Source: Candidatus Poribacteria bacterium
GTDB lineage: Bacteria > Poribacteria > WGA-4E > WGA-3G
NCBI GenBank assembly: GCA_965205015.1
Contig: OZ242029.1
Location: forward strand, 160,001-224,000
Reading direction: 5' to 3'
Length of the DNA: 64,000 nucleotides
This document shows, piece by piece, positions 6,068-23,038 of this stretch (positions within the stretch are counted from its first letter, which is position 1; each line of letters starts with the position of its first letter). Under the pieces are notes generated by a model. The model searched no databases. It was not told the origin of the DNA and saw only the letters and a program-made list of their open reading frames with translations. Both the position numbers and the translations under genes were made by a program.

Positions 6068-6085
6068 CAATCCCTGAAATAACGT

Positions 6086-6114
6086 TTGACAAAAACCGCC
6101 TCTATTGTTAATCT
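6086..6114 (+). promoter_or_regulatory. Sigma70-like promoter for the oxidoreductase array
   Basis: TTGACA-N17-TAATCT; the ORF-track TTG start at 6086 is this -35 box. Confidence 0.5.
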
Positions 6115-6184
6115 GATACAATCTATTATTTTCTATAATCTACGGCTTCGATCTTTCCGATCATGGACACCTATGGAGACACCC

Positions 6185-7231: not shown

Positions 7232-7339
7232 TTTAAAACAAATTTATATTGGACGGGTCGAAGTCTCCATGCCTTCGTCCTGTTCTGCGTTCTGGTACGC
7301 TGCTGGCGTGCTATTGTTAGTATTACAGGAGACAACCTC

Positions 7340-8377
7340 ATGTATAAAACTGCGTTCTTAGGGTGCGGGGGTCGTGCCCGCGCGCACGCGAGTGCTTACC
7401 GCTTCGTCAAACGCGGCAAAATCGCCGCAATCTGTGATATGAACACAGAGTTACTCAACAGTTTTGGAGACGACTTCGGCATCTCTTCACGCTACACCGA
7501 TCTCAATGAAATGCTGGAAAAGGAAAAACCCGATGTCCTCCACATCGTCACAGCACCCGTATTACGCGGCACCAACGAACGGATCCGATATCCATTGATG
7601 AAACAAGCCTCAGATGCTGGGGTGCCAGCCGCCATCGTCGAAAAACCGATTGCCGTTGAAAGTGAAGATTGGAAACAGATCGCGGGTTTGGCGGAAGAGA
7701 CACAAACCAAGTTCGTTGTTAACACACAGCTCAACTTCCACCCACAAAACCTCGAATTAAAAGCGGATGTCGCCGCAGGCCGTATCGGCGAAATTAAGTT
7801 CATTGATGCGAGCGCACGGAGCACACCCGTCGACCAAGCACCCCACGTGCTGCAGTTGGTGTCCTCCTACATCGATAACTCACGTCCAGTACGGGTCCTC
7901 GGGCAGATCGCAGGGAAAGAACAGTTAGATTCGGCACAACCTTCTCCCATGCACGCCGCTGGGCACGTCTTGTATGAAAACGGTCTACATGTCTCTGTCG
8001 CCTTTGGCACAGGCATGGGGACGTTGGCATCGGACAGTGAGAGTACCGTTGCCCATAAGCGGGTCTTTGTCGTGGGGACGAAAGGTTTTGTGCATTGGCG
8101 GTTCAGCAGTTGGGAACGCGCAACACCGGAAAGCGGCTACGAAGGCGGTCCGCTCAGCTACGGAGAGCAAGATATCGCCGCACAAGGCAACCTCACCGAG
8201 GCTGTTTTTGACTGGCTGGATGATGAAAACAACGTGCATCCGACACATCTCAAACAATCCCTGGCAGAATTCAATCTGCTTTTGGGAATTTACTATAGTG
8301 GTATCACGAACGAAATCATAGATTTACCTTTTGAACCCCCCGACGGATTAATGGACACCCTCCGGGAAAAATTGTAA
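7340..8377 (+). CDS. Gfo/Idh/MocA oxidoreductase, tandem copy 2
   Basis: MYKTAFLGCGGRA, IVEKP; AGGAG SD. Confidence 0.9.
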   Translation: MYKTAFLGCGGRARAHASAYRFVKRGKIAAICDMNTELLNSFGDDFGISSRYTDLNEMLEKEKPDVLHIVTAPVLRGTNERIRYPLMKQASDAGVPAAIVEKPIAVESEDWKQIAGLAEETQTKFVVNTQLNFHPQNLELKADVAAGRIGEIKFIDASARSTPVDQAPHVLQLVSSYIDNSRPVRVLGQIAGKEQLDSAQPSPMHAAGHVLYENGLHVSVAFGTGMGTLASDSESTVAHKRVFVVGTKGFVHWRFSSWERATPESGYEGGPLSYGEQDIAAQGNLTEAVFDWLDDENNVHPTHLKQSLAEFNLLLGIYYSGITNEIIDLPFEPPDGLMDTLREKL

Positions 8378-8420
8378 ACGCAATCCGAATTCAGAGGGAA
8401 CCTTTAGAGGAGACCTTTCC

Positions 8421-9464
8421 ATGTATAAAACAGCAATGTTAGGATGTGGTGGACGTGCGCGTGCGCATGCAGACGCCTATCGCTTCGTCAAAAACGGTAA
8501 ACTCGCCGCAATTTGCGATATGAACGAAGAACTCCTCACGAGTTTCGGTGAGGATTTCGGTATCTCTTCACGCTACACCGACCTCGATGAGATGCTTGAA
8601 AAAGAGAAACCCGATGTCCTCCACATCGTCACAGCACCCGTGTTACGCGGCACCAATCAACGGATTCGGTACCCATTGATGAAGCAAGCCTCGGATGCGG
8701 GTGTCCCAGCTGCGATTGTGGAGAAACCGATCGCCGTTGAAAGTGAGGATTGGAAGCAGCTCGCAGGATTAGCAGAAGAGACGCAAACGAAATTTGTCGT
8801 CAATACACAGCTCAACTTCCACCCGCAAAACTTGGAATTGAAACGAGATGTCGCAGAAGGTCATATCGGCGACATCAAATTCATTGATGCCAGTGCCCGG
8901 AGCACCCCCGTTGACCAAGCACCTCACGTGTTGCAACTCGTCTCTTCCTATATTGATAACTCGCGTCCCATGCGGGTACTCGGACAGGTTTCCGGGGCTC
9001 AGGATTTGGACTCCACGCAGCCCTCCCCCATGCATGCCGCCGCTCAGGCACTCTATGAAAACGGACTTCACGTCTCCCTCGCCTTCGGGACGGGTGTAGG
9101 ACAGCGAGTGCCTAAAGAGCCAGATGCGGGGAATCACACCCATAAACGCGTCTTTGTCGTCGGCACGAAAGGCTTCGTACATTGGCGGTTCAGCAGTTGG
9201 GAACGCGCAACACCAGAGGGTGGTTACGAGAGCGGTCCCCTCGACTACGGGGAACAGGATGTCGTCGCGCAGGGCAACCTTACCGAGGCTGTTTTTGATT
9301 GGCTTGATGATGAGAACAAACAACATCCGACGCATCTCAAGCAATCTCTTGCAGAGTTCAATCTCCTCCTCGGTATCTACTACAGCGGCGTAACGAACCA
9401 GATTATCGATCTCCCATTTGAACCACCAGATGGGTTGATTGACATCCTCCGGGAGAAGTTGTAA
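8421..9464 (+). CDS. Gfo/Idh/MocA oxidoreductase, tandem copy 3
   Basis: MYKTAMLGCGGRA, IVEKP; GAGGAG SD. Confidence 0.9.
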   Translation: MYKTAMLGCGGRARAHADAYRFVKNGKLAAICDMNEELLTSFGEDFGISSRYTDLDEMLEKEKPDVLHIVTAPVLRGTNQRIRYPLMKQASDAGVPAAIVEKPIAVESEDWKQLAGLAEETQTKFVVNTQLNFHPQNLELKRDVAEGHIGDIKFIDASARSTPVDQAPHVLQLVSSYIDNSRPMRVLGQVSGAQDLDSTQPSPMHAAAQALYENGLHVSLAFGTGVGQRVPKEPDAGNHTHKRVFVVGTKGFVHWRFSSWERATPEGGYESGPLDYGEQDVVAQGNLTEAVFDWLDDENKQHPTHLKQSLAEFNLLLGIYYSGVTNQIIDLPFEPPDGLIDILREKL

Positions 9465-9470
9465 TCCTCA

Positions 9471-9635
9471 CTTGAGACCCTTACCTTTCGATCAGAGCCT
9501 GAAGTAGCACAAGCCTTTAAACCTGCTTTGGAATCGATGGATGATCTGCAACGTCTCAAGCAGTTGTTTCGCGCCGCAATGCGGGTGGAAAGTCCAGAAG
9601 ATTTCACGCAAGCGTTGAACGCAAACGGCGAATGA
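9471..9635 (+). pseudogene. Orphan 3' fragment resembling the C-terminal domain of Rpn/DUF4351-type proteins
   Basis: Hand translation LETLTFRSEPEVAQAFKPALESMDDLQRLKQLFRAAMRVESPEDFTQALNANGE*; no clear start or RBS. Confidence 0.55.
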
Positions 9636-9728
9636 AACGCGCTGTAATTTTCCACAAGTTCCCTTACACTTTAGTTACGAACATTCATTCATTCTGCTTG
9701 ACATTAGAATATTAAAGGAGACCTCTCC

Positions 9729-10766
9729 ATGTATAAAACAGCGATGTTAGGGTGCGGTGGACGCGCCCGGGCGCACGCAGATGCCTATCGCTTCATCAAA
9801 AACGGTAAACTCGCCGCAATCTGTGATATGAACACAGAGTTACTCAACAGTTTCGGAGACGACTTCGGCATCTCTTCCCGATACACCGACCTCGACGAGA
9901 TGCTGGAAAAAGAGAAACCCGATGTCCTCCATATCGTCACAGCACCCGTGCTACGGGGTAGCAATGAGCGTATCCGCTATCCGCTGATGAAACAAGCCTC
10001 GGATGCCGGTGTGCCAGCCGCTATCGTCGAAAAACCGATTGCCGTTGAAAGCGAGGATTGGAAGCAAATTTCAGGACTTTCTAAGGAAACGAAAACGAAG
10101 TTTGTCGTCAATACGCAACTTAACTTCCATCCACAAAATCTGGAATTGAAGCGGGATGTCGCAGAAGGTCGCATCGGCGACATCAAATTTATTGATGCCA
10201 GCGCACGCAGTACCCCCGTCGATCAGGGACCCCATGTGCTGCAGCTTGTGTCCTCCTACATTGATAACTCGCGTCCCGTGCGAGTCCTCGGGCAAATCTC
10301 GGGTGCCGAACACTTGGACTCCGCTCAACCCTCTCCACAATATGCAAGTGCGCGCGTCCAGTACGAGAACGGACTTCACGTCTCTGTCGCATTCGGCACA
10401 GCCATCGCACCGACTGCCTCCGACGATCCGGTCGTCTTTTTCCACAAACGCGTTTTTGTCATCGGCGTGAAAGGGTTCGTGCATTGGCGATTCAGTAGCT
10501 GGGAACGCTCAACCCCGGAAAACGGCTATGAGGGCGGTCCGCTTAACTATGGAGAACAGGATGTCGCCGCACAAGGCAATCTCACCGAAGCCGTCTTTGA
10601 CTGGCTGGACGACGAGAGCAAAGTACATCCGACCCATCTTGAGCAATCGCTCGCCGAGTTCAATCTGCTTTTGGGAATTTACTATAGCGGTATCACAAAC
10701 GAGGTGATCGATCTCCCCTTTGATCCACCAGATGGGTTAATGGATAAACTGAGAGCCAAACTATAG
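9729..10766 (+). CDS. Gfo/Idh/MocA oxidoreductase, tandem copy 4
   Basis: MYKTAMLGCGGRA, IVEKP; AAGGAG SD. Confidence 0.9.
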   Translation: MYKTAMLGCGGRARAHADAYRFIKNGKLAAICDMNTELLNSFGDDFGISSRYTDLDEMLEKEKPDVLHIVTAPVLRGSNERIRYPLMKQASDAGVPAAIVEKPIAVESEDWKQISGLSKETKTKFVVNTQLNFHPQNLELKRDVAEGRIGDIKFIDASARSTPVDQGPHVLQLVSSYIDNSRPVRVLGQISGAEHLDSAQPSPQYASARVQYENGLHVSVAFGTAIAPTASDDPVVFFHKRVFVIGVKGFVHWRFSSWERSTPENGYEGGPLNYGEQDVAAQGNLTEAVFDWLDDESKVHPTHLEQSLAEFNLLLGIYYSGITNEVIDLPFDPPDGLMDKLRAKL

Positions 10767-10860
10767 GATACTTTGTGCCGCTTGGCACCGCATGCTCGTT
10801 TTCACCCGAAGGCGAGGTCCTCGCACCTCGCCACACGCTCGTTTAAACGGAGGCGTCACC

Positions 10861-11589
10861 ATGTCCCTTCCCAAAATTGTGTGTCTCACTTTTCTTCTCT
10901 TCGGCAGCGTCACGCTCGCAACAGATGCTGAATTGGTAGCCTACTGGTCATTTGACAAAGCAGACGGCGTAGATGACCTCACCGGCAACGGCCACGATGG
11001 GAACATCCACGGGAATCCGAAGGTCGTCGCCGGGAAGTTCGGTGAGGCATTAGAATTCAACGGTAGTACCGACTATGTAGAAATCCCTGACGCGCCGGCA
11101 ATCTCTGAACTCGAAGCGTTGTCTATGGCTGCGTGGATTCAGCCGCAAAAACTCGGTTCATGGGTTGCGGTTGCTGAGAAGGGGATTCACCTCAACTGGA
11201 GTTACGGTTTCTTCATTGAACCCGATGGGACACTCTCCTTTGAAGTTTCTACCGGTCCTGGCAACAATCTCGTCTGTTGTGTCGGTAATGTTAAAATGGA
11301 AATTGGAAAATGGTACCATATCTTCGGTTCATACGACGGTAAGTCCGTGAAGGCTTACGTTGACGGAAAACTCGAGGGTGAGATGCCGGGGGCTGATGCC
11401 GTCCATATTACCGAAGGGCTGCCCTTTACAATCGGCAGTCGCAACGGTCAGAACCATTTTGGGGGTGCCGTTGACGACGTGGCATTCTGGAACGAGGCGA
11501 TTTCCGTTGAGGACTCTATGGACCCACTTCCTGTGAAACCGGGCCGAAAACTCACAACGGCCTGGGGAGCAATAAAAACACGACACTAA
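10861..11589 (+). CDS. Secreted LamG-like jellyroll protein with C-terminal TWGxLK-type tag
   Basis: GGAGG SD before ATG 10861; signal peptide; LVAYWSFD, GKFGEALEFNG, WYHI; ends KLTTAWGAIK. Confidence 0.85.
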   Translation: MSLPKIVCLTFLLFGSVTLATDAELVAYWSFDKADGVDDLTGNGHDGNIHGNPKVVAGKFGEALEFNGSTDYVEIPDAPAISELEALSMAAWIQPQKLGSWVAVAEKGIHLNWSYGFFIEPDGTLSFEVSTGPGNNLVCCVGNVKMEIGKWYHIFGSYDGKSVKAYVDGKLEGEMPGADAVHITEGLPFTIGSRNGQNHFGGAVDDVAFWNEAISVEDSMDPLPVKPGRKLTTAWGAIKTRH

Positions 11590-11594
11590 AAAAA

Positions 11595-12446
11595 ATGGAA
11601 ACGAATCCTGAAAAATTTGCGAAACACGGTTACTTAGTTGTCCAATCGGCATTATCTGACTCAGATCTTGCCCCGTTAATCGCTGTTATCTCTGAAGCCG
11701 TCGATGCACGTGCCACCGAACTCTATAAAGAAGGGGTCATCTCGGATACCTACGAAGAAATGCCCTTTGAACGCCGTTGGCACGCTGTTTTAAAGGCGTG
11801 CGGCAGAGAAAACGAGGTCTTTGGCTGGCATACGCTTGTCTTCAGCGAGGCACTCTTTCATCTGATAACCCATCCGAAGGTGTTAGACATCTTGGAATCG
11901 CTCATCGGCGGTGATATCCAATTCAATGGCGATTTTTGGGTGCGTCCGAAACTCCCCAACGAAAAACTCACGACCCTCCCTTGGCATCAAGACAGTGCGT
12001 ATATGCCGGACACCGAAAACGATACGCATCTGACCGTTTGGCTCCCGCTCGTCGACGTTAAATTGGAGCATGGTCCCCTACAATTCCTACCGGGAAGCCA
12101 CAAATCAGGCTTACAAACCTATCACCGCGTGTCGGGTGAAGCGTTCGCCGTCCCGGTCCTCCCTCCCACCTCATCTGATACCGACATCGATACCTTAGAG
12201 ATGAAGAAAGGTGACCTACTCGTCTTTAACAATCTGGTATTCCATCGATCATTAGTGAATCACAGCGACAGCATCCGTTGGTCGACAGATTTTCGGTTCA
12301 GTCGCGCCGGTACCTCGCTAAACGGACTCTGGCACGAAGCGATCGCCTGTCCAGCTCGCGAGCGTGAAAGCAGGCAGTGCCCCACGTCATGGCAGACGTG
12401 GCGCGCCCAATGGGAAGTCAGTCCACACAAAGACAGATTTGTTTAA
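11595..12446 (+). CDS. Phytanoyl-CoA dioxygenase (PhyH) family 2OG-Fe(II) oxygenase
   Basis: PWHQD, LPGSHK, GDLLVF...HRS. Confidence 0.9.
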   Translation: METNPEKFAKHGYLVVQSALSDSDLAPLIAVISEAVDARATELYKEGVISDTYEEMPFERRWHAVLKACGRENEVFGWHTLVFSEALFHLITHPKVLDILESLIGGDIQFNGDFWVRPKLPNEKLTTLPWHQDSAYMPDTENDTHLTVWLPLVDVKLEHGPLQFLPGSHKSGLQTYHRVSGEAFAVPVLPPTSSDTDIDTLEMKKGDLLVFNNLVFHRSLVNHSDSIRWSTDFRFSRAGTSLNGLWHEAIACPARERESRQCPTSWQTWRAQWEVSPHKDRFV

Positions 12447-12480
12447 TCCTTCCGCTAAGATTGCCAATCTTAAAAATAGG

Positions 12481-12509
12481 TTGTATCTCCAGATTTTTTA
12501 TGCTATAAT
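12481..12509 (+). promoter_or_regulatory. Sigma70-like promoter
   Basis: TTGTAT-N17-TATAAT with extended TG. Confidence 0.55.
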
Positions 12510-12598
12510 TTAAAGTATACACAGCGTAAGAAATGTCTCAGGAGAATCGGGAACGCCTAAGTTTTATCGGTTCTTCTATCAACACATAGGAGGTTGTT

Positions 12599-13357
12599 TT
12601 GTTAAATCTAAGAATTATTACAGTTACCCTCAGTGTGCTACTCATACTGGGTAGCAGCATGCTCAGCTCCGCAGAAATCACTGAAGATATGATCGCGGCA
12701 GCATGGCTGTTTGAGGGCGATGCCGAAGATATGTCCGGAAACGGGTTTGATGGTGAGGTGAAAGGTGGAAACTTTGTCGCTGGGAAATTCGGTGATGCCA
12801 TCGAACTCGACGGCGCAGGCGATTGGGTCGAAATATCTGAACGGATCGGCTCATTTGAAGAAATTACCTTCACACATTGGGTTAAATCCACCGGACGGGA
12901 GGGCGCATGGCGTGTTTTCTTCAATGTCAACGGTTGGAAAGCCGGGGACATCCACTACCAGATGCACCCAAATAATAAAGTCGAGTTTTCCATTCACAGT
13001 AACCCAGGTGGGAACGACACTTTTGCGAACTATATGTTGGCAGGCGATCAGATGGATAAATGGGTCCATATCGCAACCGCCTATAGTGCCAAGGAAAAGA
13101 AAATCCGTTTTTACGTTAATGGCAAACTCAATGCTGAAAACGATTGGGGTGGAAACCCCGGTGTCCTCGATCCTGCCCGAATTGGTGACTGGAACCAAAG
13201 TCGACAATGGGAAGGGCTGTTAGATGAGTTCATCATCTTCAATACTGTCCTCGATAAAGATGACATAGAAGCGGTTATGAATGACGGTTTCGAGACGACC
13301 CTCGCTGTGGACGCGAAAGAAAAGTTGGCCGTCACATGGGGCAGTCTAAAAAAGTAA
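12599..13357 (+). CDS. Secreted LamG-like protein with TWGxLK tag
   Basis: TTG start with GGAGG SD; signal peptide; WLFEG, GKFGDAIELDG, WVHIA, GLLDE; ends LAVDAKEKLAVTWGSLKK. Confidence 0.85.
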   Translation: MLNLRIITVTLSVLLILGSSMLSSAEITEDMIAAAWLFEGDAEDMSGNGFDGEVKGGNFVAGKFGDAIELDGAGDWVEISERIGSFEEITFTHWVKSTGREGAWRVFFNVNGWKAGDIHYQMHPNNKVEFSIHSNPGGNDTFANYMLAGDQMDKWVHIATAYSAKEKKIRFYVNGKLNAENDWGGNPGVLDPARIGDWNQSRQWEGLLDEFIIFNTVLDKDDIEAVMNDGFETTLAVDAKEKLAVTWGSLKK

Positions 13358-13403
13358 GACGGAGAAGCGATCACCGAGTCGCATTTTCAAAAGGAAAATA
13401 AAT

Positions 13404-14243
13404 ATGCTTTTGGCAAAACGCTATCTGAATTATACGTTCATTGCAATTGTTGTTATTGCGCTCAGCTTCGTGGTGATGGCTACAAGCCACGCGGCGGATG
13501 AAGGCGATATTGCAGGGATGTGGACCTTTGAAGAAGGTAAAGGTAAAGAAGTAAAAGATCTTTCCGGTAACGGAACCGACGGTGAATTTGTCGGCGACCT
13601 GAAATGGGCGAAAGGCAAATTTGGTGGCGGATTAGAATTTAACGGGGCAGACACGTGGGTCAAACTCGGCACGAAGGGTGAAGATAAAACGTTAGCCGCT
13701 TTGGACTTCAAGGATTCTAAAGGGTTCTCAATCCATTCTTGGGTCTACGCTGCAGAGGATCCCACCGGGAAATGTGTCATATGGAAAGGGCTTGGATGTT
13801 CAACCTGGTCGCAGTTTTTACTCGGAACGGGCGCACACGAAAACGGGCAAAATAGCACACAGGCAGCATTCCATATCCGCGCCGCCAACGGTGGCGGGAA
13901 ACTTGAAGTCCTCGGTGATGAACTCCCGTCTAAAGAGTGGGTACATCTCGTCGGCACATGGGATGGCGCCCAACTCCATGTCTACGTCAACGGCAAACTA
14001 CAGAACTCCGAAGATGCAAAGGGACCGCCGTGGGCATCTCCCGAAGAGGTCTACATCGGTGCCGATCCGGGCTGTGGCAAACGCTGCCAGTGGAACGGTA
14101 TCATCGACGAAGTTGTTGTCTTCAACACGGTGCTCACGGATGATGAGGTCGTCAAACTCGGTGAGGGTATTGAAGGCTATTTAGCTGTTGAGGCAGCAGG
14201 AAAAATAGCGACAACTTGGGGTTCACTCAAATCTTCCCAATAG
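13404..14243 (+). CDS. Secreted LamG-like protein with TWGxLK tag
   Basis: Signal peptide; WTFEEG, GKFGGGLEFNG, WVHLVGTWDG, GIIDE; ends LAVEAAGKIATTWGSLK. Confidence 0.85.
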   Translation: MLLAKRYLNYTFIAIVVIALSFVVMATSHAADEGDIAGMWTFEEGKGKEVKDLSGNGTDGEFVGDLKWAKGKFGGGLEFNGADTWVKLGTKGEDKTLAALDFKDSKGFSIHSWVYAAEDPTGKCVIWKGLGCSTWSQFLLGTGAHENGQNSTQAAFHIRAANGGGKLEVLGDELPSKEWVHLVGTWDGAQLHVYVNGKLQNSEDAKGPPWASPEEVYIGADPGCGKRCQWNGIIDEVVVFNTVLTDDEVVKLGEGIEGYLAVEAAGKIATTWGSLKSSQ

Positions 14244-14346
14244 ATACGCACCGAAACGTCACTATACAGAGTGTTTGAAAATGAGATGTCTACCAAACTG
14301 AGGTGGGCATCTCCTCGTGAGTTGTATCCCGAAGGAGAACCTCAAA

Positions 14347-15054
14347 ATGAGAATCCAAAGACTGTGTGTTGTTAGTTTTTGGGTGGCTCTTCTGTTGTTT
14401 GGAAACGTAATGGCAGAGACACTCTTCTTTGATGATTTTGAGGGAAACGCTGAGATCGAATGGCCCGATGTGCCAGCGATAAAAATTGAAAAAGAGCCGG
14501 GCAATCCAGACAACACCGTCCTCGTTTTTGACACAAGAAACGATCAAACCCACGCCGATGCCCTCTTCCTTGAAGGGTTCGAGGATCTGACGGACTACAC
14601 AGTGCGAGCAAAATTCAATATCGTTGGTGAAACAGCGGATTTTGCCGCAATCGGTTTGATTGTACGGGCGCAGTTGGCAACCGAATATATGCTCGTCGAA
14701 CCGGCGAGAAAACGACTGTGTTGCGGAGATCCACGAGAAAACATCCTCAATGTCTTTGAACGCGGTGCGGGTTGGCCGATCGTCGCCAAAACGGACATCG
14801 ATATTGAACTCGACGAATGGCATGAACTGTCGGTCACTGTAGAAAACAAAAAACTAACTGTCTTCCTCGATGGCAAACAGATTGTTGAATACGGTAAAGT
14901 CCCTTATCCGAAAGGGGGTTTCGGCATCCGTGAGTGGAAATCTGAAACCCTCATCGATGATGTGGAGGTCTTTGATAAAGGCGGTTCAAGCCTTGCCGTC
15001 GAATCACGTGACAAACTTACCCTCACATGGGGAAAGTTGAAAGCTACACAGTAG
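14347..15054 (+). CDS. Secreted concanavalin-like beta-sandwich protein (DUF1080-like) with TWGxLK tag
   Basis: AAGGAG SD before ATG 14347; LFFDDFE, WHELSV, GGFGI, IDDVEV; ends LAVESRDKLTLTWGKLK. Confidence 0.7.
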   Translation: MRIQRLCVVSFWVALLLFGNVMAETLFFDDFEGNAEIEWPDVPAIKIEKEPGNPDNTVLVFDTRNDQTHADALFLEGFEDLTDYTVRAKFNIVGETADFAAIGLIVRAQLATEYMLVEPARKRLCCGDPRENILNVFERGAGWPIVAKTDIDIELDEWHELSVTVENKKLTVFLDGKQIVEYGKVPYPKGGFGIREWKSETLIDDVEVFDKGGSSLAVESRDKLTLTWGKLKATQ

Positions 15055-15105
15055 ATTCCCAGACCCGATTAAGAAACCAGAAACAGCCTAAAGGACACAC
15101 AATAC

Positions 15106-15894
15106 ATGGACTTAGGATTGAGTGGAAAACGCGCAATCGTTACCGGCGGTAGTCGAGGCATTGGTAGGCAGTGCGCGCTTGCCCTCGCACAAGAGGGTGT
15201 TCATGTCTGTATTGCCGCCCGAACACAAGACGCACTCCATCAAGTCCTCTCGGAACTTGAACAGACTGGATCCAAAGGACATACTGTCGCAGGCGATCTA
15301 AATATACCGGCGAATTGTGAGAAGGTGGTGCAGGAGACAATTGATCGCTTCGGTGGTGTCGATATCCTCGTCAACAATGTCGGTGCCGCTCGGAATGCCG
15401 ATATTTTGGCACTCTCACCAAACCTAATTGATGAAGCACTTTCCTTGAAAACTTATAGTTACCTTCGGATGGCACAACTGGTTATCCCCTACATGAAGGA
15501 AAGTCAGTGGGGACGCATCATCAACATCGCAGGTTCAGCCGGTACAAGCCCCACGCGTAGCAACATACCAACAGGGGCAGCCAACATCACGATTCTGAAC
15601 ATCACACGCGCACTCTCCGATGCTGTCGCCGGCGACGGCATCTTGGTAAATACCGTTTGCCCGGGATTGACGAACACCGGTCGAGCACGCACGCAGCAAG
15701 GTGCAAGAGCTGCACGTGAAGAACGTGATGTCGAGGCACTGTTACAGGAACTCGGGCAAGAACTTCCTGCGGGACGTATCGCGGAACCGGAAGAGATCGC
15801 GAACGTCGTAACATTTTTAGCCTCCGAAGCCTGCTCCTACATGTTTGGGAGCGCGCTTTATATGGATGGCGGCAAACGTCGTTCAACCCCATAA
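15106..15894 (+). CDS. SDR family oxidoreductase
   Basis: TGGSRGIG, DILVNNVG, NTVCPG; canonical YxxxK not evident. Confidence 0.85.
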   Translation: MDLGLSGKRAIVTGGSRGIGRQCALALAQEGVHVCIAARTQDALHQVLSELEQTGSKGHTVAGDLNIPANCEKVVQETIDRFGGVDILVNNVGAARNADILALSPNLIDEALSLKTYSYLRMAQLVIPYMKESQWGRIINIAGSAGTSPTRSNIPTGAANITILNITRALSDAVAGDGILVNTVCPGLTNTGRARTQQGARAAREERDVEALLQELGQELPAGRIAEPEEIANVVTFLASEACSYMFGSALYMDGGKRRSTP

Positions 15895-15933
15895 GGGTAT
15901 CAAAAAAGAATTACTTTGAAGGAGATTGTTCAA

Positions 15934-16707
15934 ATGAATATTGTTAAGCGTTTATCAACCCACAAATTTCTCCTCTTCACGCTGGTATATGCCGCTATTT
16001 TTGCCTGGACTTCCAGCAGCTTCGGCGAAGTTTTATACCTCGACGATTTCGAAGATGGAAAAATTGATGGCGACTATGAATTCAAGAACCATGACGGCGA
16101 TTGGGTAGAAAAGGGCGGCGTTATCAGTCAAACGCATGAAGCCCCCGGCGACCATACCTACCTCGTCTTAGACGGCGGTTTTCCAGAACCCCATACCGGC
16201 TTAGTCATGATTCGCGTCGATGATTGGGGAGACGGTGACCTTGCACGGTGTGGACTCGGATTTCGGCTTGATCCGGGGGATGCCTCCGGTTACGCCTTCC
16301 TGATTCACCATTTCCTCAACAACATGGAGTTCCTCAACGACCATCGCGCGTGGAAACAGAACGATACCGAACCGCCCTTCGGAGAGGTAGCACTCGGTAC
16401 ATGGTACTGGATGAAAGCCGAAATATCTGACAAGGGGTTTACTGGCAAAATCTGGGAAGATGGCGAAAATGAACCCAAAGACTGGCTTCTTGAAAGTAAA
16501 CTCGACTTCGGGGGTCCCAGACCTGAAAGCGGACAAGTCGGACTCAACGGGGGTTCAAGCAGAGGCGCACCCGCGTTGACCATTGTCTCATTTGACAACT
16601 GGGCTATTTGCGAGACAGCCGACGAGTGCACACCCGATGAGATCCTCGCTGTTCAGGCAACTGGCAAACTGCCAACCCTTTGGGGCGAGATCAAAGCACG
16701 CTACTAA
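15934..16707 (+). CDS. Secreted beta-sandwich protein with TWGxLK-type tag
   Basis: AAGGAG SD; signal peptide; LYLDDFEDG, WYWMKAE, GKIW; ends LAVQATGKLPTLWGEIK. Confidence 0.75.
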   Translation: MNIVKRLSTHKFLLFTLVYAAIFAWTSSSFGEVLYLDDFEDGKIDGDYEFKNHDGDWVEKGGVISQTHEAPGDHTYLVLDGGFPEPHTGLVMIRVDDWGDGDLARCGLGFRLDPGDASGYAFLIHHFLNNMEFLNDHRAWKQNDTEPPFGEVALGTWYWMKAEISDKGFTGKIWEDGENEPKDWLLESKLDFGGPRPESGQVGLNGGSSRGAPALTIVSFDNWAICETADECTPDEILAVQATGKLPTLWGEIKARY

Positions 16708-16709
16708 TA

Positions 16710-16813
16710 TAGTTATCAGTTCGCCTGCTCCGCAGGAAACCTTCAGTCTTCAGTTATCAGTAACAAGAAGGTTCTGTTCAACCAGAATCCTCTTTAACTG
16801 ATAACTGATAACC
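16710..16813. repeat. Heptamer-armed inverted repeat element (family B)
   Basis: AGTTATCAGT units on the left, AACTGAT units on the right, GGTTCTG/CAGAATC inner stem. Confidence 0.65.
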
Positions 16814-16873
16814 AAAGATCATTAATTCTGCCAACGACTCAGGACGTGGAGTCATATCCACACACATTAACGT

Positions 16874-17041
16874 ATGGGAACAATTTTATTCGTCATTTTC
16901 GGGATCGTCATTCTTGTTGTATGTATCCTGATTCTCTTCCAAATTTTGCAAGCAATTTTCGCCTTCCTATTTTCCGTCGCCCTCTTCATCGTTGTCGTTG
17001 GCGGCGCGTTTCTGATTCTCAGAAAAATTTTTAGAGGATGA
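16874..17041 (+). CDS. Small 55-aa two-helix membrane protein (absent from ORF track)
   Basis: Hand translation MGTILFVIFGIVILVVCILILFQILQAIFAFLFSVALFIVVVGGAFLILRKIFRG*. Confidence 0.65.
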   Translation: MGTILFVIFGIVILVVCILILFQILQAIFAFLFSVALFIVVVGGAFLILRKIFRG

Positions 17042-17108
17042 AAGCCCCTCGGACGTAAGGTTCGCTTGCACGTTCCCCATACATAAAAGAATCAAAGGAG
17101 ATTCACTT

Positions 17109-17903
17109 ATGTTGCAAAAGGCTATTCTTTTCTCACTAATCCTCGCAATTAGTTTTATCGGAACCAACCTCTCCGCGCAAATCGTCGAAGATGGACTGGT
17201 CAGTTATTGGAGTTTCGATGCAAACAACATCGACGGAAAGACCGTTAAGGACGGAACCGGCAATTACAACGGCTCTATCAAGGGGAATCTGAAAAAAGTC
17301 GGCGGTAAAATCGGCGACGCATTGGAGTTCGACGGAGACGAGGGAAATTTTGTCGAAATCGACAGTCCAGAAGAATTTGATTTCAACGCCGATTTCACTT
17401 GGTCGGCATGGATAAAAACCGATAATTCCGGACCCGGCGTCATCTTCGCCAAAACAGGCGGTCCCGGTACCGATGATAAGGGTCCCAAAACCCTATGGGT
17501 TCGTAATAGCGTCCTTAATCTCGACACCGGCTGGGTCGGTAACGTCGAAGATGTAGGAAACAACATCGACGATAATAAGTGGCACCATATCGCCATCGCA
17601 GGTACACCCGAGGATAGTAAGGTCCAATTCTTCGTTGATGGCGAAGCAACCGCCGAGGGTGTGCTGAACCTCGCCCAATTCCCTGAAGATGAATGGGCAA
17701 GTATCCATATGTTTATCGGTTTAGACGGTAGAGCCGACGGTGAATTCGGTGTGTTTACCGGTATCATAGACGAATTCAGCATCTACGATCGAGTCCTTGA
17801 CGAAGGCGAAGTCAATCAGAACTTCAAGTCTGACACAGGACTCGCAGTTGATCCCAACGGCAAACTCGCCGTGACATGGGGAACTCTCAAAGCACACCGA
17901 TAA
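17109..17903 (+). CDS. Secreted LamG-like protein with TWGxLK tag
   Basis: Signal peptide; GLVSYWSFD, GKIGDALEFDG, WHHIA, GIIDE; ends LAVDPNGKLAVTWGTLK. Confidence 0.85.
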   Translation: MLQKAILFSLILAISFIGTNLSAQIVEDGLVSYWSFDANNIDGKTVKDGTGNYNGSIKGNLKKVGGKIGDALEFDGDEGNFVEIDSPEEFDFNADFTWSAWIKTDNSGPGVIFAKTGGPGTDDKGPKTLWVRNSVLNLDTGWVGNVEDVGNNIDDNKWHHIAIAGTPEDSKVQFFVDGEATAEGVLNLAQFPEDEWASIHMFIGLDGRADGEFGVFTGIIDEFSIYDRVLDEGEVNQNFKSDTGLAVDPNGKLAVTWGTLKAHR

Positions 17904-17970
17904 GCGTTCTACCTTCCAGAGGCGCGTTCTGCAAACGCGCCTCTAAACATACCTGCACAATATCGTACAG

Positions 17971-18077
17971 GTTTGCGGTTAAGCCGTGGCAGGAGCCCGC
18001 AACAACGGCACGGATATACGCAGAGGCACGTGAATGCACAAATCTACTTTACCCAACCGCAAGGTAAAATTAAAAAA
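17971..18077 (+). repeat. About 105-bp dispersed MITE-like element (family A)
   Basis: TTGCGGTT...AACCGCAA inverted ends followed by GGTAAAATTAAAAA; body matches the reverse complement of 37526-37590. Confidence 0.6.
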
Positions 18078-19437
18078 TCGAACCATCTTTGAAGGTGACA
18101 ATTTGTATGTGCTTCGCGGTCTTGACGCCGATACCATCGATCTGATCTATCTCGACCCGCCTTTCAACTCCAACCGAACCTTTGAAGCACCGACAGAGAG
18201 CGAGGCAGCAGGCGCAGCATTCAAAGATTCCTGGACACTCAACGATTTAGACAACGCGTGGCACGGTGAACTCGCAGAGAAAGCACCCGATCTTTATCAC
18301 GCCATCAGTACCGCTGAATTCACGCACGGGAAATCCATGAAAGCCTATCTGATTATGATGGGTATCAGGATGTTGGAGATGTATCGAATCCTGAAACCGA
18401 CAGGAACCCTCTATCTCCATTGCGATGACAACGCGAGTCACTACCTGAAAATGATGATGGACGGCATTTTCGGAAGAGACAATTTTAGGAACGAGATCGT
18501 TTGGCAAAGGGCTGTAACCAGCAAAGGGAATCTCAAAAAGGGCCTGGCGCGAGACGCTGATCTCATCCTCCGGTATTCAAAAAGCAACGATTTCGTCTGG
18601 AATCCTGACGCCGTCACAATCCCTTACGATATGGAGGATCTCGACGAAAAAACCAAACGTCAATATTATTACGTTGAACCCGGCACCGGACGATTCGTAG
18701 CGCATACCTCTATCACCGCTCAGACGCAGGACCCCGATTCTCACCTCACATACGAAGTCATGGGCGTTACCAGAACATGGCGGTGGGCGGAATCGCGGAT
18801 GCTCAAGGAAATCGAAGCCGGACGTGTTGTGCAGACACGTCCCGGAAATGTCCCCCGATACAAACGCTACCTTGATGAACAGAAAGGTAAAACGCTGAAC
18901 AACATCTGGGTAGATATCCCCAACCTAACAGCACGAAATAAAGAGCGGATTGGGTACCCCACACAGAAACCTATCGCCTTGTTAGAGCGAATTATCCGTG
19001 CGAGCAGCAATCCGGGAGACCTGGTACTCGATCCTTTCTGCGGGTGTGCTACCACATGTATTGCCGCAGAACGTCTACAACGGCATTGGATCGGTATCGA
19101 TTTAAGTTCCAAATCTTTCGAACTTGCCAAACTGCGGCTTGAACAGCACGGGATTATCAAGAAGGTTATCCACCGAAAGGGCACTCCTAAACTTGACCAG
19201 CAAGATCGAACCTGTAAACATACGCTATTTGGACTTCAGGAGGGTAGATGCAATGCCTGCCAAACGGTATCCCCATTTCGTGATATGAGAGTTGACCACA
19301 TTGTAGCCCTATCCAAAGGAGATGCCGATACGCTCGACAATCTTCAGTTGTTGTGTAGAGCGTGTAAATCGATGAAGCAGAATAGCACACAAGATCAACT
19401 GATTCAGACGTTGAAAACCGAAGGAATTTTGCTATGA
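18034..19437 (+). CDS. Beta-class amino-DNA methyltransferase fused to a C-terminal HNH domain
   Basis: IYLDPPFN (motif IV) precedes LDPFCGCATT (motif I); YPTQKP; CNAC...VDHIV...NLQLLCRAC. Confidence 0.85.
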   Translation: MHKSTLPNRKVKLKNRTIFEGDNLYVLRGLDADTIDLIYLDPPFNSNRTFEAPTESEAAGAAFKDSWTLNDLDNAWHGELAEKAPDLYHAISTAEFTHGKSMKAYLIMMGIRMLEMYRILKPTGTLYLHCDDNASHYLKMMMDGIFGRDNFRNEIVWQRAVTSKGNLKKGLARDADLILRYSKSNDFVWNPDAVTIPYDMEDLDEKTKRQYYYVEPGTGRFVAHTSITAQTQDPDSHLTYEVMGVTRTWRWAESRMLKEIEAGRVVQTRPGNVPRYKRYLDEQKGKTLNNIWVDIPNLTARNKERIGYPTQKPIALLERIIRASSNPGDLVLDPFCGCATTCIAAERLQRHWIGIDLSSKSFELAKLRLEQHGIIKKVIHRKGTPKLDQQDRTCKHTLFGLQEGRCNACQTVSPFRDMRVDHIVALSKGDADTLDNLQLLCRACKSMKQNSTQDQLIQTLKTEGILL

Positions 19438-20216
19438 AAAAATTTATGAAGTTTGATAAGACCGCGGCCAGGATGATAGCAGCCGTCGCGCTGATATTCT
19501 TCGCAACACATCTCACAGCAGTTGCAAAGCGCGATAAACAGTACGTCGCCAAACAAATCACGAACCTCAAAGTGGATGGCGATCTCAGCGAATGGAAACG
19601 CGCCGAAATCGTTGCTTTTGATGAATTGAAGGATGTCGGGGACGGTGCCCCCAAAGCCAGTGATTTTACGGGGCAGGATAGGGTCGCGTGGAGCGCACAA
19701 GACCCAACCCGCATCTATTTCGCTGTTGAAATTACCGACGATAAACTCCAAGATATTCATCCAGACAATACGAAGTGGTGGGAAGACGATAGCGTCGAAT
19801 TCATGTTTGATTTCGACAATGGAATGGTCCGAGAGAGCCTCGTGCAGTGGACACTCGGCGCAAATGGCAAGGATTTATCCGCTGCTGCATCTAAAGAAAA
19901 CACCGAATGGGTGCTCGTCAACAATGGAAATGATTACATCTATGAAGTCGCCATTGATCCAACAAAGCCGCGTGGTAACCCACAGTTTGCGAATCCCGCG
20001 AAAGGGAAAAATTTCAAAGCGAAAGATGGCTTACTTATCGGGCTTAGCTTCCACGCGAACGATTGTGAGGGTGGAGGACGCCAACATCAGATTGGATGGA
20101 CACCCGGCGGAGCATGGGATGGCCTCGCCTACGGCGACCTCATTTTCGACGATGAAGTATTAGCCGTCGCGCCCGCTGGTAAACTTGCTTTGACGTGGGG
20201 TGCGCTTAAACAGTAA
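19434..20216 (+). CDS. Secreted CBM9/DOMON-like sugar-binding protein with TWGxLK tag
   Basis: VDGDLSEW, IYFAVEITDD, WEDDSVE, YEVAI; ends LAVAPAGKLALTWGALK; ATGA overlap with the methyltransferase. Confidence 0.75.
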   Translation: MKKFMKFDKTAARMIAAVALIFFATHLTAVAKRDKQYVAKQITNLKVDGDLSEWKRAEIVAFDELKDVGDGAPKASDFTGQDRVAWSAQDPTRIYFAVEITDDKLQDIHPDNTKWWEDDSVEFMFDFDNGMVRESLVQWTLGANGKDLSAAASKENTEWVLVNNGNDYIYEVAIDPTKPRGNPQFANPAKGKNFKAKDGLLIGLSFHANDCEGGGRQHQIGWTPGGAWDGLAYGDLIFDDEVLAVAPAGKLALTWGALKQ

Positions 20217-20287
20217 ACCTGACGGCTCGACGCTGACAGCTGGGGAAATTCGCAGAAACACCCAAGCAAAAACACTGTCATTTAAAA

Positions 20288-22216
20288 ATGCCAAAATCTC
20301 ATGCGTCAGTTACATCTGGAATTACGCTTCGATCGCTCTTCATTGGCACACTCCTCGTTATCGGGAATGCCTACTGGCTTGCCTATGCGGCTGAGATGAT
20401 TCAGCCGCAATTCCTTCTTAATTTCGTCTCACTCTTCTTCAACGCCCTTTTCACACTTTTCGCCGTTATCGCTTTCAACCTCGTTTGGAAAAAACTTGCG
20501 CCGCGCAGCGCACTGACCCCACAGGAACTCCTCGTTATCTATATCATGGTCGTCATGGTATCCACCATCGGCGGTCATTCCATGATGACGTTCCTGATCG
20601 GGACACTCGCCCATCCGTTCCGGTTTGCTACCATTGAAAACGAATGGGCATCTCTCTTTTGGCGTTACATCCCGACATGGTTTGTGCCTGAGGACTACGC
20701 ACTCGATGCCTACTTTAAGGGTGGCTTGAGTTTTTACCTCCCGAAGCATCTACGCGGCTGGATGGTACCGATTCTTGTCTGGACAGGATTTGTCGCACTC
20801 CTCTGGTTTACACTGATATGCCTCAATAGCATCATCCGCGTTCAATGGACGGAGCGTGAAAAGTTGGCATATCCGATTATCCAATTACCGCTCCAGATGG
20901 CGCAAGGACGGAAAAGTTTTTACAGAAACACCACGATGTGGGTCGGTTTTTCGGTCGCCGCGTTTATTGAACTCCTCGCGGGATTAAGCCATCTATTCCC
21001 TCAAATCCCCGCTATTCAACTGAGTTCCTATTCTATCACGCATCTGTTCACGGACAAACCGTGGAACGCTGTCGGGTGGGTCCCTCTATCTATCTACCCG
21101 TTTATCATAGGACTCACATTTTTTGTCCCGTTGGACATCTCGATGTCGGCGTGGTTTTTCTACCTGTTTGGTAAAGCGGAACGGGTGATTCGCACGGGGA
21201 TGTTAGGTGAAGGTGAACTCTATTTCGCAGAGCGAGCAGGTGGGGCATGGCTCGCCGTCGGAATCTTGGCACTGTGGGGAACCCGGCGACATCTCCGTGA
21301 TGTCATCCTGAATTGCTTGACGACCAAAAAAGCGTATGATGATTCAAATGAACCGATGCCCTACCGTGTCGCTGTCCTCGGATTAATCTTCGGAGGTATC
21401 GGACTCACGCTATTTTCGGTAAAAGCGGGTATGTCCTTAGGCGGTGTCCTTGGCTTTATCGTCATTTTCATCCTGATGGCACTCGGCGTTACACGCGTGC
21501 GTGCCGAATTTGGACCCCCCTCCCACGAGATTCTCGCCCTCGATCCCGCACGATTGATGGTCGTCACCTTTGGCGCACGCTTCGTCGGGACTGGTAATCT
21601 CACAATCATATCCTTCTACTACTGGCTCAACCGACTTAATGTTTCGCATCCGATGCCAAACCAATTAGAAGGCTTCAAACTCGCAGAACGAGCAGGCATA
21701 AACAGTCGAAGACTGGTCTGGGTGATGATGTTCGCGATTGTTGTCGGGACACTCGCATCGTTTTGGGCGTTCCTCTATCTCCTTTATGAGACCGGAGCAT
21801 TCGCTGTACACGGCTACATCCTGGGTATTGGGGAGGAGGTCTTCGGGAGACGTTTAGAACGGTGGCTCAACAATCCTACCGGTCCGAATTGGGATGGCAC
21901 ACAATCCATGGGCATCGGCGCAGGGATGACATGGATCCTCTATTTCCTGCGGCATAAATTTATCTGGTGGCCCTTCCATCCGATCGGATACGTGATGACG
22001 GCTGCCACCTGGGGCGGTCTCGCCGATTTCTGGTTCTCCGTCTATATCGGCTGGATGATAAAGGTTATCATTGTCTCAATCTTCGGTCTACGCGCACATC
22101 AACGCGCAATCCCATTCTTTCTGGGATTGGTCATGGGCGATTATGTATTCGTAGGGGGCTGGGCACTCATCGGCACACTGTTCGATATGCCGACATACGT
22201 CCTCTGGTCACCTTAG
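20288..22216 (+). CDS. Multi-pass membrane protein, DUF6785/DUF6784 (OPT-like putative transporter)
   Basis: Many TM segments; QWTEREKLAYPI, RVRAEFG, WWPFHPIGY, PFFLGLVMG. Confidence 0.7.
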   Translation: MPKSHASVTSGITLRSLFIGTLLVIGNAYWLAYAAEMIQPQFLLNFVSLFFNALFTLFAVIAFNLVWKKLAPRSALTPQELLVIYIMVVMVSTIGGHSMMTFLIGTLAHPFRFATIENEWASLFWRYIPTWFVPEDYALDAYFKGGLSFYLPKHLRGWMVPILVWTGFVALLWFTLICLNSIIRVQWTEREKLAYPIIQLPLQMAQGRKSFYRNTTMWVGFSVAAFIELLAGLSHLFPQIPAIQLSSYSITHLFTDKPWNAVGWVPLSIYPFIIGLTFFVPLDISMSAWFFYLFGKAERVIRTGMLGEGELYFAERAGGAWLAVGILALWGTRRHLRDVILNCLTTKKAYDDSNEPMPYRVAVLGLIFGGIGLTLFSVKAGMSLGGVLGFIVIFILMALGVTRVRAEFGPPSHEILALDPARLMVVTFGARFVGTGNLTIISFYYWLNRLNVSHPMPNQLEGFKLAERAGINSRRLVWVMMFAIVVGTLASFWAFLYLLYETGAFAVHGYILGIGEEVFGRRLERWLNNPTGPNWDGTQSMGIGAGMTWILYFLRHKFIWWPFHPIGYVMTAATWGGLADFWFSVYIGWMIKVIIVSIFGLRAHQRAIPFFLGLVMGDYVFVGGWALIGTLFDMPTYVLWSP

Positions 22217-22313
22217 CAATTGGCATATCAGGATAGAAGGGATATAGGTTCTTGAAAAAAGAAAGGAAAACAGGTAGGGATTGCGGAGTACCTTCTTCGG
22301 ATAGGATTCATAG

Positions 22314-22739
22314 TTAGTGAAGTGGAATATAACTGCTTAGAAACTCTACCGCTTTGACAATAGGAATCCCTTGATATGAACCAAGTGAAAGCAGATGTTG
22401 ATCACCGCTGATAATCATATCAGCTGCCGCCTCTATGGCACAGGCAATAATAATGTTATCATCGGGATCATCAAGGACGGCATTAACAGTAATTGTTCCC
22501 GGAACTAAAACTGCAAAGGTCTTGAGGACCTCAAGATACTCAGCAATATCGGCATCTGATAGGTTGTATTTTTGTTGAATACGTGGACGATGTACAACTG
22601 TCTCAAACTCTTCTAATATGACAGGAGATATTGCGAGTTCAATCAGACCGACACGCCAGAGTTTCATGATTTGAGCTGGATGCCCATTAGGTCGGATAAT
22701 TGCACTAATATGCTGGTTTGTATCCAGTACAACACGCAT
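22314..22739 (-). CDS. PIN-domain toxin (PIN_3 type)
   Basis: MRVVLDTN, DPDDN, ISGDQHLL. Confidence 0.9.
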   Translation of the reverse strand: MRVVLDTNQHISAIIRPNGHPAQIMKLWRVGLIELAISPVILEEFETVVHRPRIQQKYNLSDADIAEYLEVLKTFAVLVPGTITVNAVLDDPDDNIIIACAIEAAADMIISGDQHLLSLGSYQGIPIVKAVEFLSSYIPLH

Positions 22740-23038
22740 TAAGAAGACAACTTATTCCTTTTTGATGTTTTCTCGGCGCGTGCCTCAATAATTGCCTGTT
22801 CAATATCGTCCTGTGCTTCTTCTTCACTCACGCCTGGCACTTTTTCCCATATTCTGTCCAATACCGAAAAGGCTTGTTCTCGCTGTTGAAGCATTTTTTC
22901 ATAAGCCTCAATTGGAACAATCGCGGCAAGCGGTGTGTTGGCGCGTTTGACTATCAGCCGATCCCCGTTTCGGTAGACTCCATCGAGCAATTCACCAAGC
23001 TTCTGATGTAACTCCGTTGTTGAAATTTCTTTCCTCAT
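22739..23038 (-). CDS. Phd/YefM-family antitoxin
   Basis: ISTTELHQKLGELLD...IVKR...AAIVP; TAATG coupling to the PIN gene. Confidence 0.85.
   Translation of the reverse strand: MRKEISTTELHQKLGELLDGVYRNGDRLIVKRANTPLAAIVPIEAYEKMLQQREQAFSVLDRIWEKVPGVSEEEAQDDIEQAIIEARAEKTSKRNKLSS

Follow-up and report, generated by a model that had tools for sequence, protein, structure and literature searches.

Sortases, exosortases and the secretion system of type IX (T9SS) are all envelope machineries that were reached through C-terminal sorting tags. The LPXTG, PEP-CTERM and GlyGly-CTERM signals carry a transmembrane helix after the motif, attachment of the Lpp type runs through a C-terminal lysine, and PBP5/6 of Escherichia coli are tethered by a C-terminal amphipathic helix. 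The type A C-terminal domain (CTD) of T9SS substrates (model TIGR04183, with PorU as the sortase) is a folded beta-sandwich of about 70–100 amino acids (PMC4804311), and Kamke et al. (2014; PMC3909097) reported TIGR04183-like domains in Poribacteria and no Por structural genes. Here we describe a tail of about 20 residues, hereafter the tag, which ends seven exported proteins encoded in a 64,000-nt window from Candidatus Poribacteria (the whole stretch of DNA analyzed: contig OZ242029.1, positions 160,001–224,000; all coordinates below are window positions), and which we compare with these systems.

A modular tag at the C-terminus of exported proteins

When the 64 kb were searched in all six frames for K[LIVM]xx[TLVSA]WGx[LIVM]K, exactly seven places were found, all on the plus strand; the loose DNA form of the motif holds about 24 bits, so that only about 0.01 matches would be expected in the window. 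In all seven genes the stop codon lies 1–3 codons past the last lysine. A first-pass annotation, made by a model from the letters alone, had described seven genes with a signal peptide, one domain and a terminal motif ending 1–3 residues before the stop, and the list of open reading frames (ORFs) together with the scan bears this out for every one of them. The first gene (g1, 10861–11589, tag at 11527–11577) encodes a signal peptide, a Laminin_G_3 domain (Pfam, 2.8e-27) and the motif variant LPV...TAWG; its longest ORF begins at 10792 and its likely start is the ATG at 10861, ahead of the hydrophobic segment. Signal peptide, Laminin_G_3 and tag also make up g2 (12599–13357, tag at 13301–13351; 1.4e-19), g3 (13404–14243, tag at 14181–14231; 4.9e-25) and g6 (17109–17903, tag at 17841–17891; 9.4e-18), and in g7 (19434–20216, tag at 20160–20210) the domain behind the signal peptide is CBM9_1 (2.1e-15). 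Of the remaining two, g4 (14317–15054, tag at 14992–15042) has a signal peptide and a concanavalin-like domain with a weak Pfam match to 3keto-disac_hyd/DUF1080 (1.5e-5, 25.6 bits, just below the 26.8 cut-off), and g5 (15916–16707, tag at 16645–16695) has a signal peptide and a domain without a Pfam family, to which the closest clusters in the ESM-Atlas are of poribacterial '3-keto-disaccharide hydrolase domain' proteins (score 0.98; 212 of 256 features). These assignments agree with the four LamG, one DUF1080-like, one CBM9-like and one other passenger domain proposed earlier.

Hydrophobic signal peptides were scored with an N-terminal hydrophobicity heuristic, not with SignalP; the test was passed by 7 of 7 tag proteins vs. 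12 of the 48 other ORFs in the window, and most of those 12 are genuine exported or membrane proteins. PhyH, short-chain dehydrogenase and methylase genes interspersed among the tag genes lack the tail, as had been noted for the cytoplasmic proteins of the array. When the 3' ends of the seven genes were aligned, codon positions 1 and 2 were kept, position 3 was variable, and divergence was complete past the stop. Since the conservation is confined to codon positions 1 and 2 and ends at the stop, selection has acted at the protein level; a DNA-repeat origin of the tail was rejected on the same pattern.

The tag is phylum-wide in Poribacteria. A strict back-translated pattern, scanned against one genome per prokaryotic species, gave at least 125 loci, and in 125 of the 125 listed the reading frame runs through the motif to a stop 1–12 codons later. 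Among these listed matches, 112 are labeled Poribacteria, 11 'uncultured bacterium', and 2 come from one 'Pseudomonadota' bin; four 'uncultured' bins hold 42–166 loose matches each, and one of the four is a member of the poribacterial phylum. The strict pattern had 0 matches in 2.9 million viral contigs. With a looser pattern, five complete chromosomes gave 67–124 matches (control: 0–2), and all 81 genomes drawn evenly across the phylum gave 7–139 each (median 78, sum 6146; a count by pattern of the hits per genome that the first-pass annotation had suggested), whereas the reversed pattern that served as our specificity control gave 0–4 matches per 4–7 Mb genome. These per-genome numbers were taken from Poribacteria genomes other than that of the window, and they are underestimates: eight neighboring LamG or PD40 proteins in the regions that we fetched end in missed variants such as TWS or TWA. 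Position was uniform, in that the loose matches are C-terminal in 59 of 59 cases (window plus 20 fetched regions), or 184 of 184 with the strict matches listed. The earlier description of the tag as lineage-specific is supported, the matches listed by the species-genome scan and the phylum counts placing it in Poribacteria and a small clade of a second phylum. Four of the 59 matches end short ORFs of 63–197 amino acids (L126:10100, L130:4526, L130:16339, L140:6023); these are probably decayed or frameshifted tag genes, hence a mark of fast family turnover.

The consensus is [L]-A-V-[DE]-[PAS]-x-[GD]-K-L-[ATS]-[TVLI]-T-W-[GAS]-x-[ILV]-K, behind which come 1–12 residues that are largely basic or polar (R 18%, A 11%, S 9%, K 9%), about 20 residues in total. 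Conservation is stronger in the tag than in its passengers. The homologs of g6 are named Candidatus Poribacteria wherever a name is given, and 105 of 114 retain the tail, even where the LamG part is only about 30% identical; a 56-sequence alignment gathered via that part has just six invariant columns, and the W and the last K of the tail belong to them. Among 40 poribacterial tails taken as an unbiased set, conservation extended beyond the search pattern: A in 30, V in 36, D or E in 28, G before the first K in 22, and T in 26 and 33 at positions before the W. The invariance claimed earlier for the first K, WG and the last K was upheld for the last K and the W, but relatives show that the G can be A or S and that the first K is not strictly invariant.

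To the shape of the tag, one model speaks. The AlphaFold2 (AF2) model of g6, the single carrier and passenger type for which a structure was predicted, has a mean predicted local distance difference test (pLDDT) of 90.6 from the 56-row alignment; the LamG sandwich scores 93–98, and residues 241–264, in ten-residue blocks, score 71, 54, and 57, with the tail not packed on the sandwich. About 24 residues in all follow the LamG domain, of which about 5–7 form the linker between domain and tail. In this model the tag is not part of the LamG fold, and the possibility raised earlier, that the tail packs as an integral part of its domain, does not hold there. AF2 draws a helix at residues 249–263 (pLDDT 54–57). 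An amphipathic beta-hairpin would fit the conservation pattern at least as well: V/L/L/T/W alternate with E/K/A/A/T, P-x-G may form the turn, and D/E and K could pair across the strands.

Quantification of the carriers revealed that 71 of 76 non-redundant complete tagged ORFs passed the signal-peptide test (background: the 12 of 48 window ORFs); of the five failures, four are fragments of 35–184 amino acids and one is borderline. The motif is thus not equally present in signal-less proteins, a co-occurrence check that the first-pass annotation had proposed. A lipobox-like sequence was seen in 2 of 72 tagged proteins, which by sequence are not lipoproteins. The passengers of these 72 proteins are Laminin_G_3 (50), CBM9_1 (7), DUF3108_like (3), 3keto-disac_hyd (1), F5/8 type C (1) and no family (10), and PD40 beta-propellers are also among the carriers; the tag is therefore modular, as had been supposed, with at least six passenger types. 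The idea of a library of glycan-binding proteins fits the lectin-like modules but is too narrow, as DUF1080-type, PD40, unknown-family and ankyrin proteins carry the tag as well. Carriers in the scan set are 226–299 amino acids long, besides two proteins of 342 and 382 amino acids from the 'Pseudomonadota' bin and the four fragments; those in the fetched regions reach 385, and the overall range of tag proteins is 226–391.

In the second phylum, that of the 'Pseudomonadota'-labeled bin, tags occur, frequently as tandem pairs, in 4 of 131 genomes (11, 6, 3, and 3 loose matches), and the other 127 genomes are at background. The carriers are signal-peptide proteins of 305–391 amino acids without a Pfam family, plus one ankyrin protein. 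Homologs of one such carrier keep the tag in 18 of 19 cases, a retention that argues for a function travelling with the tag; the narrow distribution suggests that the tag probably reached this phylum by transfer. A search for DUF6785, the transporter family discussed below, found it in none of the four tag-bearing genomes, and of the T9SS parts PorU was absent from all four and SprA and PorV from the two searched, so in this lineage the tag works, or is maintained, without either. The neighbors of the tag genes are housekeeping genes (a RimO/MiaB-like radical SAM enzyme, GTP cyclohydrolase I, RND efflux, NADH dehydrogenase), with a RimO/MiaB-like–tag–tag arrangement conserved in three of the genomes. 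We rejected the notion that tag machinery is encoded beside the tag genes here, because these neighbors are unrelated housekeeping genes. As minor observations, a tagged ankyrin-repeat gene and a prepilin-type gene (N_methyl, ComP_DUS-like) were seen once in succession with a 4-base overlap (L137:222–710 and L137:707–1882, both on the minus strand), and tagged proteins of this lineage (L138–L147) have a second hydrophobic stretch about 30–50 residues in, past the signal peptide. A resemblance of their passengers to trypsin-like proteins (ESM-Atlas 0.92, but 100 of 256 features) was too weak and was not used.

Comparison with described sorting and anchoring signals

The signals read by sortases, exosortases, archaeosortases and rhombosortases resemble the tag in being short motifs at the extreme C-terminus of signal-peptide proteins, modular, present on many paralogs and basic at the end. 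They differ from it in the sequence that follows, since in 125 of 125 listed cases the tag is followed by only 1–12 mostly polar residues and no transmembrane helix. The tail has no Pfam or NCBIfam match, sorting-signal models included (E up to 10). Both points support the contrast with PEP-CTERM, LPXTG and GlyGly-CTERM that was drawn in the first-pass annotation, and the tail does not coincide with a characterized domain, an outcome which that annotation had considered. We found no gene for a dedicated sorting enzyme and, in the Poribacteria literature, no publication describing such a motif, the supplementary tables of a 2014 single-cell paper, which could list some of the tag genes, lying outside the search. 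The tag is absent from the domain libraries and from the literature searched.

With the type A CTD of the T9SS the tag shares its C-terminal position, Sec-exported carriers, diverse passengers, dozens of copies per genome, and even the same poribacterial genomes. Nevertheless, the tag is not a T9SS CTD. None of 10 tagged proteins matched TIGR04183 (the seven window proteins with an E limit of 1, and five proteins, of which two were repeats, with a limit of 10), and in the same NCBIfam scan a poribacterial FG-GAP protein matched that model at 20.5 bits. The roughly 24 residues that follow the LamG domain are too few for the CTD fold, the carriers are small (CTD carriers have mostly 443–5532 amino acids vs. 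226–391 for tag proteins), and a canonical TWG tag was followed by a CTD in 0 of 184 cases. It is for these reasons that we separate the two, and the tag moreover persists in the second-lineage genomes that lack PorU, SprA or PorV. As a separate candidate, the tag was considered as the last strand of the Por CTD and rejected, because a hidden Markov model (HMM) of the tail missed the C-terminal strand in 30 of 30 CTD sequences.

Lipoprotein anchors would be alike in the function that we propose below, namely a soluble exported domain held at the envelope, but differ in the lipobox that the tagged proteins almost always lack. Lipid anchoring is also used in this genome: an immunoglobulin-like protein with TIG and Big_5 domains and a lipoprotein-like N-terminus, without a tag, is encoded at 34299–35225 on the minus strand. 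Amphipathic-helix anchors of the PBP5 type recall the weak helix that AF2 draws for the tail; unlike the tag, they are not known to be conserved residue by residue. The final residue of the 125 listed tags is R in 38, K in 20, Q in 15, N in 13, and F, Y or W in 16, so that neither the aromatic last residue of the outer-membrane-protein beta-signal (16 of 125) nor the last lysine of the Lpp type (20 of 125) characterizes the tag. Its GSLK-like end resembles the cargo peptides of encapsulins and microcompartments, a candidate that was rejected because the carriers have signal peptides.

Candidate functions of the tag

We hold with moderate confidence that the tag is an envelope sorting or tethering signal recognized in trans. 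On this proposal, the tag would be a self-contained C-terminal element on small, Sec-exported, non-lipidated proteins; one common component of the cell envelope would recognize it in trans, and the proteins, instead of being free, would be kept at the envelope by sorting or tethering. An analogy is offered by the DUF1080-type proteins, which one study identified as periplasmic 3-keto-glucoside lyases/hydratases (bioRxiv 10.1101/2024.03.25.586180). In Bacteroidota, according to that study, DUF1080, Gfo/Idh/MocA and sugar-phosphate-isomerase-like lyases constitute a periplasmic 3-keto-glycoside cleavage pathway, and the signal peptide of the DUF1080 enzyme is predicted to be of the lipoprotein kind, which suggests that the enzyme is periplasmic. 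Of the poribacterial proteins, the DUF1080-like g4 and g5 have a plain signal peptide plus the tag in place of the lipoprotein signal. Because the Bacteroidota proteins are predicted to be lipid-anchored and their poribacterial counterparts carry the tag instead, the tag may do the job of the lipid anchor. Tagged binding modules and periplasmic-type enzymes from substrate-utilization loci could together form a large, diversifying capture layer at the cell. The export, surface-display or scaffold-docking signal suggested by the first-pass annotation survives in so far as the tag is modular, linked to signal peptides, unpacked, unmatched and lineage-restricted, but no receptor, protease or scaffold was found.

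Several points weigh against an envelope signal of this kind. No reader of the tag was found, and the second lineage has no conserved machinery-like neighbor and lacks every candidate tested (DUF6785 and PorU found in 0 of 4 genomes, SprA and PorV in 0 of 2). Self-recognition of the tag by oligomerization, or its direct binding to lipid or cell wall, would account for the conservation equally well with no protein reader. The structural evidence comes from one passenger type, and low pLDDT is no proof of disorder. Lastly, absence of the tag from other phyla was sampled (at least 125 loci listed) rather than proven.

A more far-reaching version of the envelope reading is possible but doubtful: that the tag is the address label of a new envelope sorting or anchoring pathway with its own receptor, independent of the T9SS, sortases and exosortases, which has moved sideways into a second phylum. 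Such a pathway, if true, would handle about 2% of the poribacterial proteome (roughly 80 or more of a few thousand genes). The tag marks a very large share of the exported proteins in a dominant, uncultured phylum of sponge symbionts, and it sits on lectin-like and 'eukaryote-like' domains that are usually invoked for contact with host or substrate; its destination would tell whether these proteins are turned toward the host, the sponge matrix or the periplasm. With the destination known, the surface or envelope proteome of Poribacteria could moreover be predicted by a simple rule at the sequence level. The tag is short enough to be tried as a portable peptide.

The genomic neighborhood suggests a different partner. 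The gene that starts 72 bases downstream of g7, on the same strand (20288–22216, plus), encodes a polytopic membrane protein of 642 amino acids with DUF6785 and DUF6784 (Pfam, 3.2e-151 and 3.9e-28), for which we found no paper and, by sequence, no solved relative. Its AF2 model (pLDDT 90.3; predicted template modeling score 0.91) matches barley Yellow Stripe 1 over the whole length in Foldseek (7wst_A, E 6.4e-9, TM 0.58/0.62; 7wsr_A, E 1.6e-8; probability 1.00 and TM 0.56–0.62 for the two entries), with the next hit at E 0.02. On the strength of this match the protein is, by predicted fold, an OPT/YSL-like secondary transporter. Pfam OPT (PF03169) itself is not matched, only DUF6785 and DUF6784 being found at E up to 1e-5, and a precomputed PF03169 label sits on 1 of 120 listed homologs. 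DUF6785/DUF6784 is an uncharacterized, hugely expanded transporter family in its own right, with 28–64 matches in five poribacterial genomes, 8–94 first-look candidates in each of 81, and 0 in 14 control genomes.

We consider this transporter a candidate functional partner of the locus. It is unlikely, however, that the tail is chiefly a docking peptide that plugs extracytoplasmic binding partners onto a conserved site of DUF6785/DUF6784 OPT-like transporters. Binding-protein-dependent secondary transporters are known, as in TRAP and TTT, and the likeness extends to exported binding proteins encoded beside a secondary transporter and to the joint expansion of both families; the tag passengers, on the other hand, are lectin-like beta-sandwiches rather than of the substrate-binding-protein fold, and linkage is partial. 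We know of no OPT-family transporter that uses a binding protein, and if the link holds it would represent a binding-protein-assisted form of OPT-type transport. In one complete genome, a tag lies within 3 kb of 14 of the 40 full-length DUF6785 copies, against 4.0 expected and no more than 13 in any of 2000 random placements, and within 10 kb of 24 of the 40, against 9.2 expected, but conversely a DUF6785 gene lies within 3 kb of only 21 of 100 tags and within 10 kb of 44 of 100. Tag and DUF6785 copy numbers are correlated across the 81 genomes (Spearman 0.35, p 0.0014; 0.30 with genome size removed), although the genomes are related and the correlation is not independent, and both families could simply share substrate-utilization islands. 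A recurring set of one to four tag genes, DUF6785/DUF6784, PhyH, GFO/IDH/MocA, short-chain dehydrogenase, xylose-isomerase-like and BNR genes was observed, and clusters of tag, DUF6785 and enzyme genes were present in 6 of 10 fetched regions; seven of the ten had been picked for a nearby DUF6785 match, so these shares describe our picks and not the genome, and even so no transporter lies near 4 of the 10 tag arrays. The second-phylum genomes carry tags with no DUF6785 at all. Co-folding of the transporter with the last 32 residues of g6 scored 0.00 in both runs, made without controls, and is evidence neither way.

Self-association of the tag is likewise improbable as its main role. Amphipathic hairpins (or helices) of several chains would pack together and turn weak monovalent domains into multivalent, possibly mixed oligomers of paralogs. 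The foldon of phage T4 fibritin is a hairpin trimer, and lectin-type domains generally gain from multivalency. Such packing would suit an appendage that hangs free and whose single hydrophobic side (V, L, L, T/V, W) has to be buried against something, as well as lectin-type passengers encoded in tandem arrays of paralogs, and it needs no machinery, in keeping with the second lineage where none was found. Yet some 80 paralogs with one identical interface would cross-associate indiscriminately, and a self-interface would be free to drift in each family, whereas the same motif is kept across the phylum and into a second one.

We think it very unlikely that the tag is a T9SS-linked element, whether as a minimal stand-in for the Por-type CTD or as a junction remnant after CTD loss, handled by a T9SS-like apparatus. 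The parts for such handling appear to be at hand, since five complete Poribacteria genomes each contain 26–121 TIGR04183 matches, two or three PorU-like ORFs (about 2100 amino acids, 270–318 bits; cut-off 420), one SprA-like ORF (about 2200 amino acids in several collinear pieces, best 71 bits; cut-off 200) and PorV-like genes (84–100 bits; cut-off 250). A divergent T9SS-like system thus probably exists beside the tag; the first-pass annotation was right that the tag is short and distinct from the CTD, but it had missed that the same genomes also contain Por-type CTDs and T9SS-like genes. Furthermore, 3 of 30 CTD proteins examined, with FG-GAP-type ends, have a tag-like stretch (AVDP..KL.T.LG..K) directly before the CTD, and tag-only proteins end about where a CTD would begin. 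The tail HMM scored these stretches at 12.1, 4.4, and 1.2 bits vs. at most 1.0 in 150 shuffles, but only 12.1 is significant, and it is chiefly the first half of the tag that is matched. The differences in model match, length, carrier size and order set out above, together with the second lineage that lacks PorU, SprA and PorV, also speak against this link.

That the tail has no separate function, being the inherited last element of one ancestral domain family or a stabilizing cap, is extremely unlikely: Laminin_G_3 does make up 50 of the 72 passengers, DUF1080-like domains share its concanavalin-like superfamily and the linker is only about 5–7 residues, but the tail also ends unrelated folds (CBM9, F5/8 type C, DUF3108-like, PD40, ankyrin and the family of the second phylum), is better conserved than the domains, and lies unpacked in the g6 model.

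Other genes of the locus

Directly upstream of the first tag gene lie five tandem paralogs of GFO/IDH/MocA oxidoreductases (5024–10766, plus) that have neither tag nor signal peptide; as these window enzymes lack a signal peptide, the pathways here are not organized as in Bacteroidota. A PhyH dioxygenase gene (11595–12446, plus) lies between g1 and g2 and a short-chain dehydrogenase gene (15106–15894, plus) between g4 and g5, both without a tag. In library X1, a sponge metatranscriptome, contigs 85–95% like all parts of 10000–22500 were found, the tag genes included; these contigs are those of relatives and may reflect DNA carry-over, so they show neither transcription of this locus nor its co-transcription with the transporter gene.

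Inside the tag array, a fused N6/N4 DNA methylase and HNH endonuclease gene (18034–19437, plus) overlaps the start of g7 by 4 bases and has the look of a restriction-modification-type insertion. The transporter gene is directly followed by a toxin–antitoxin pair (22314–23038, minus) of a PIN-domain protein and Phd/YefM, and further along the window a TnpB/Cas12f-like gene, with OrfB_IS605 and a Cas12f1-like TNB domain, is located at 43997–45223 on the plus strand.

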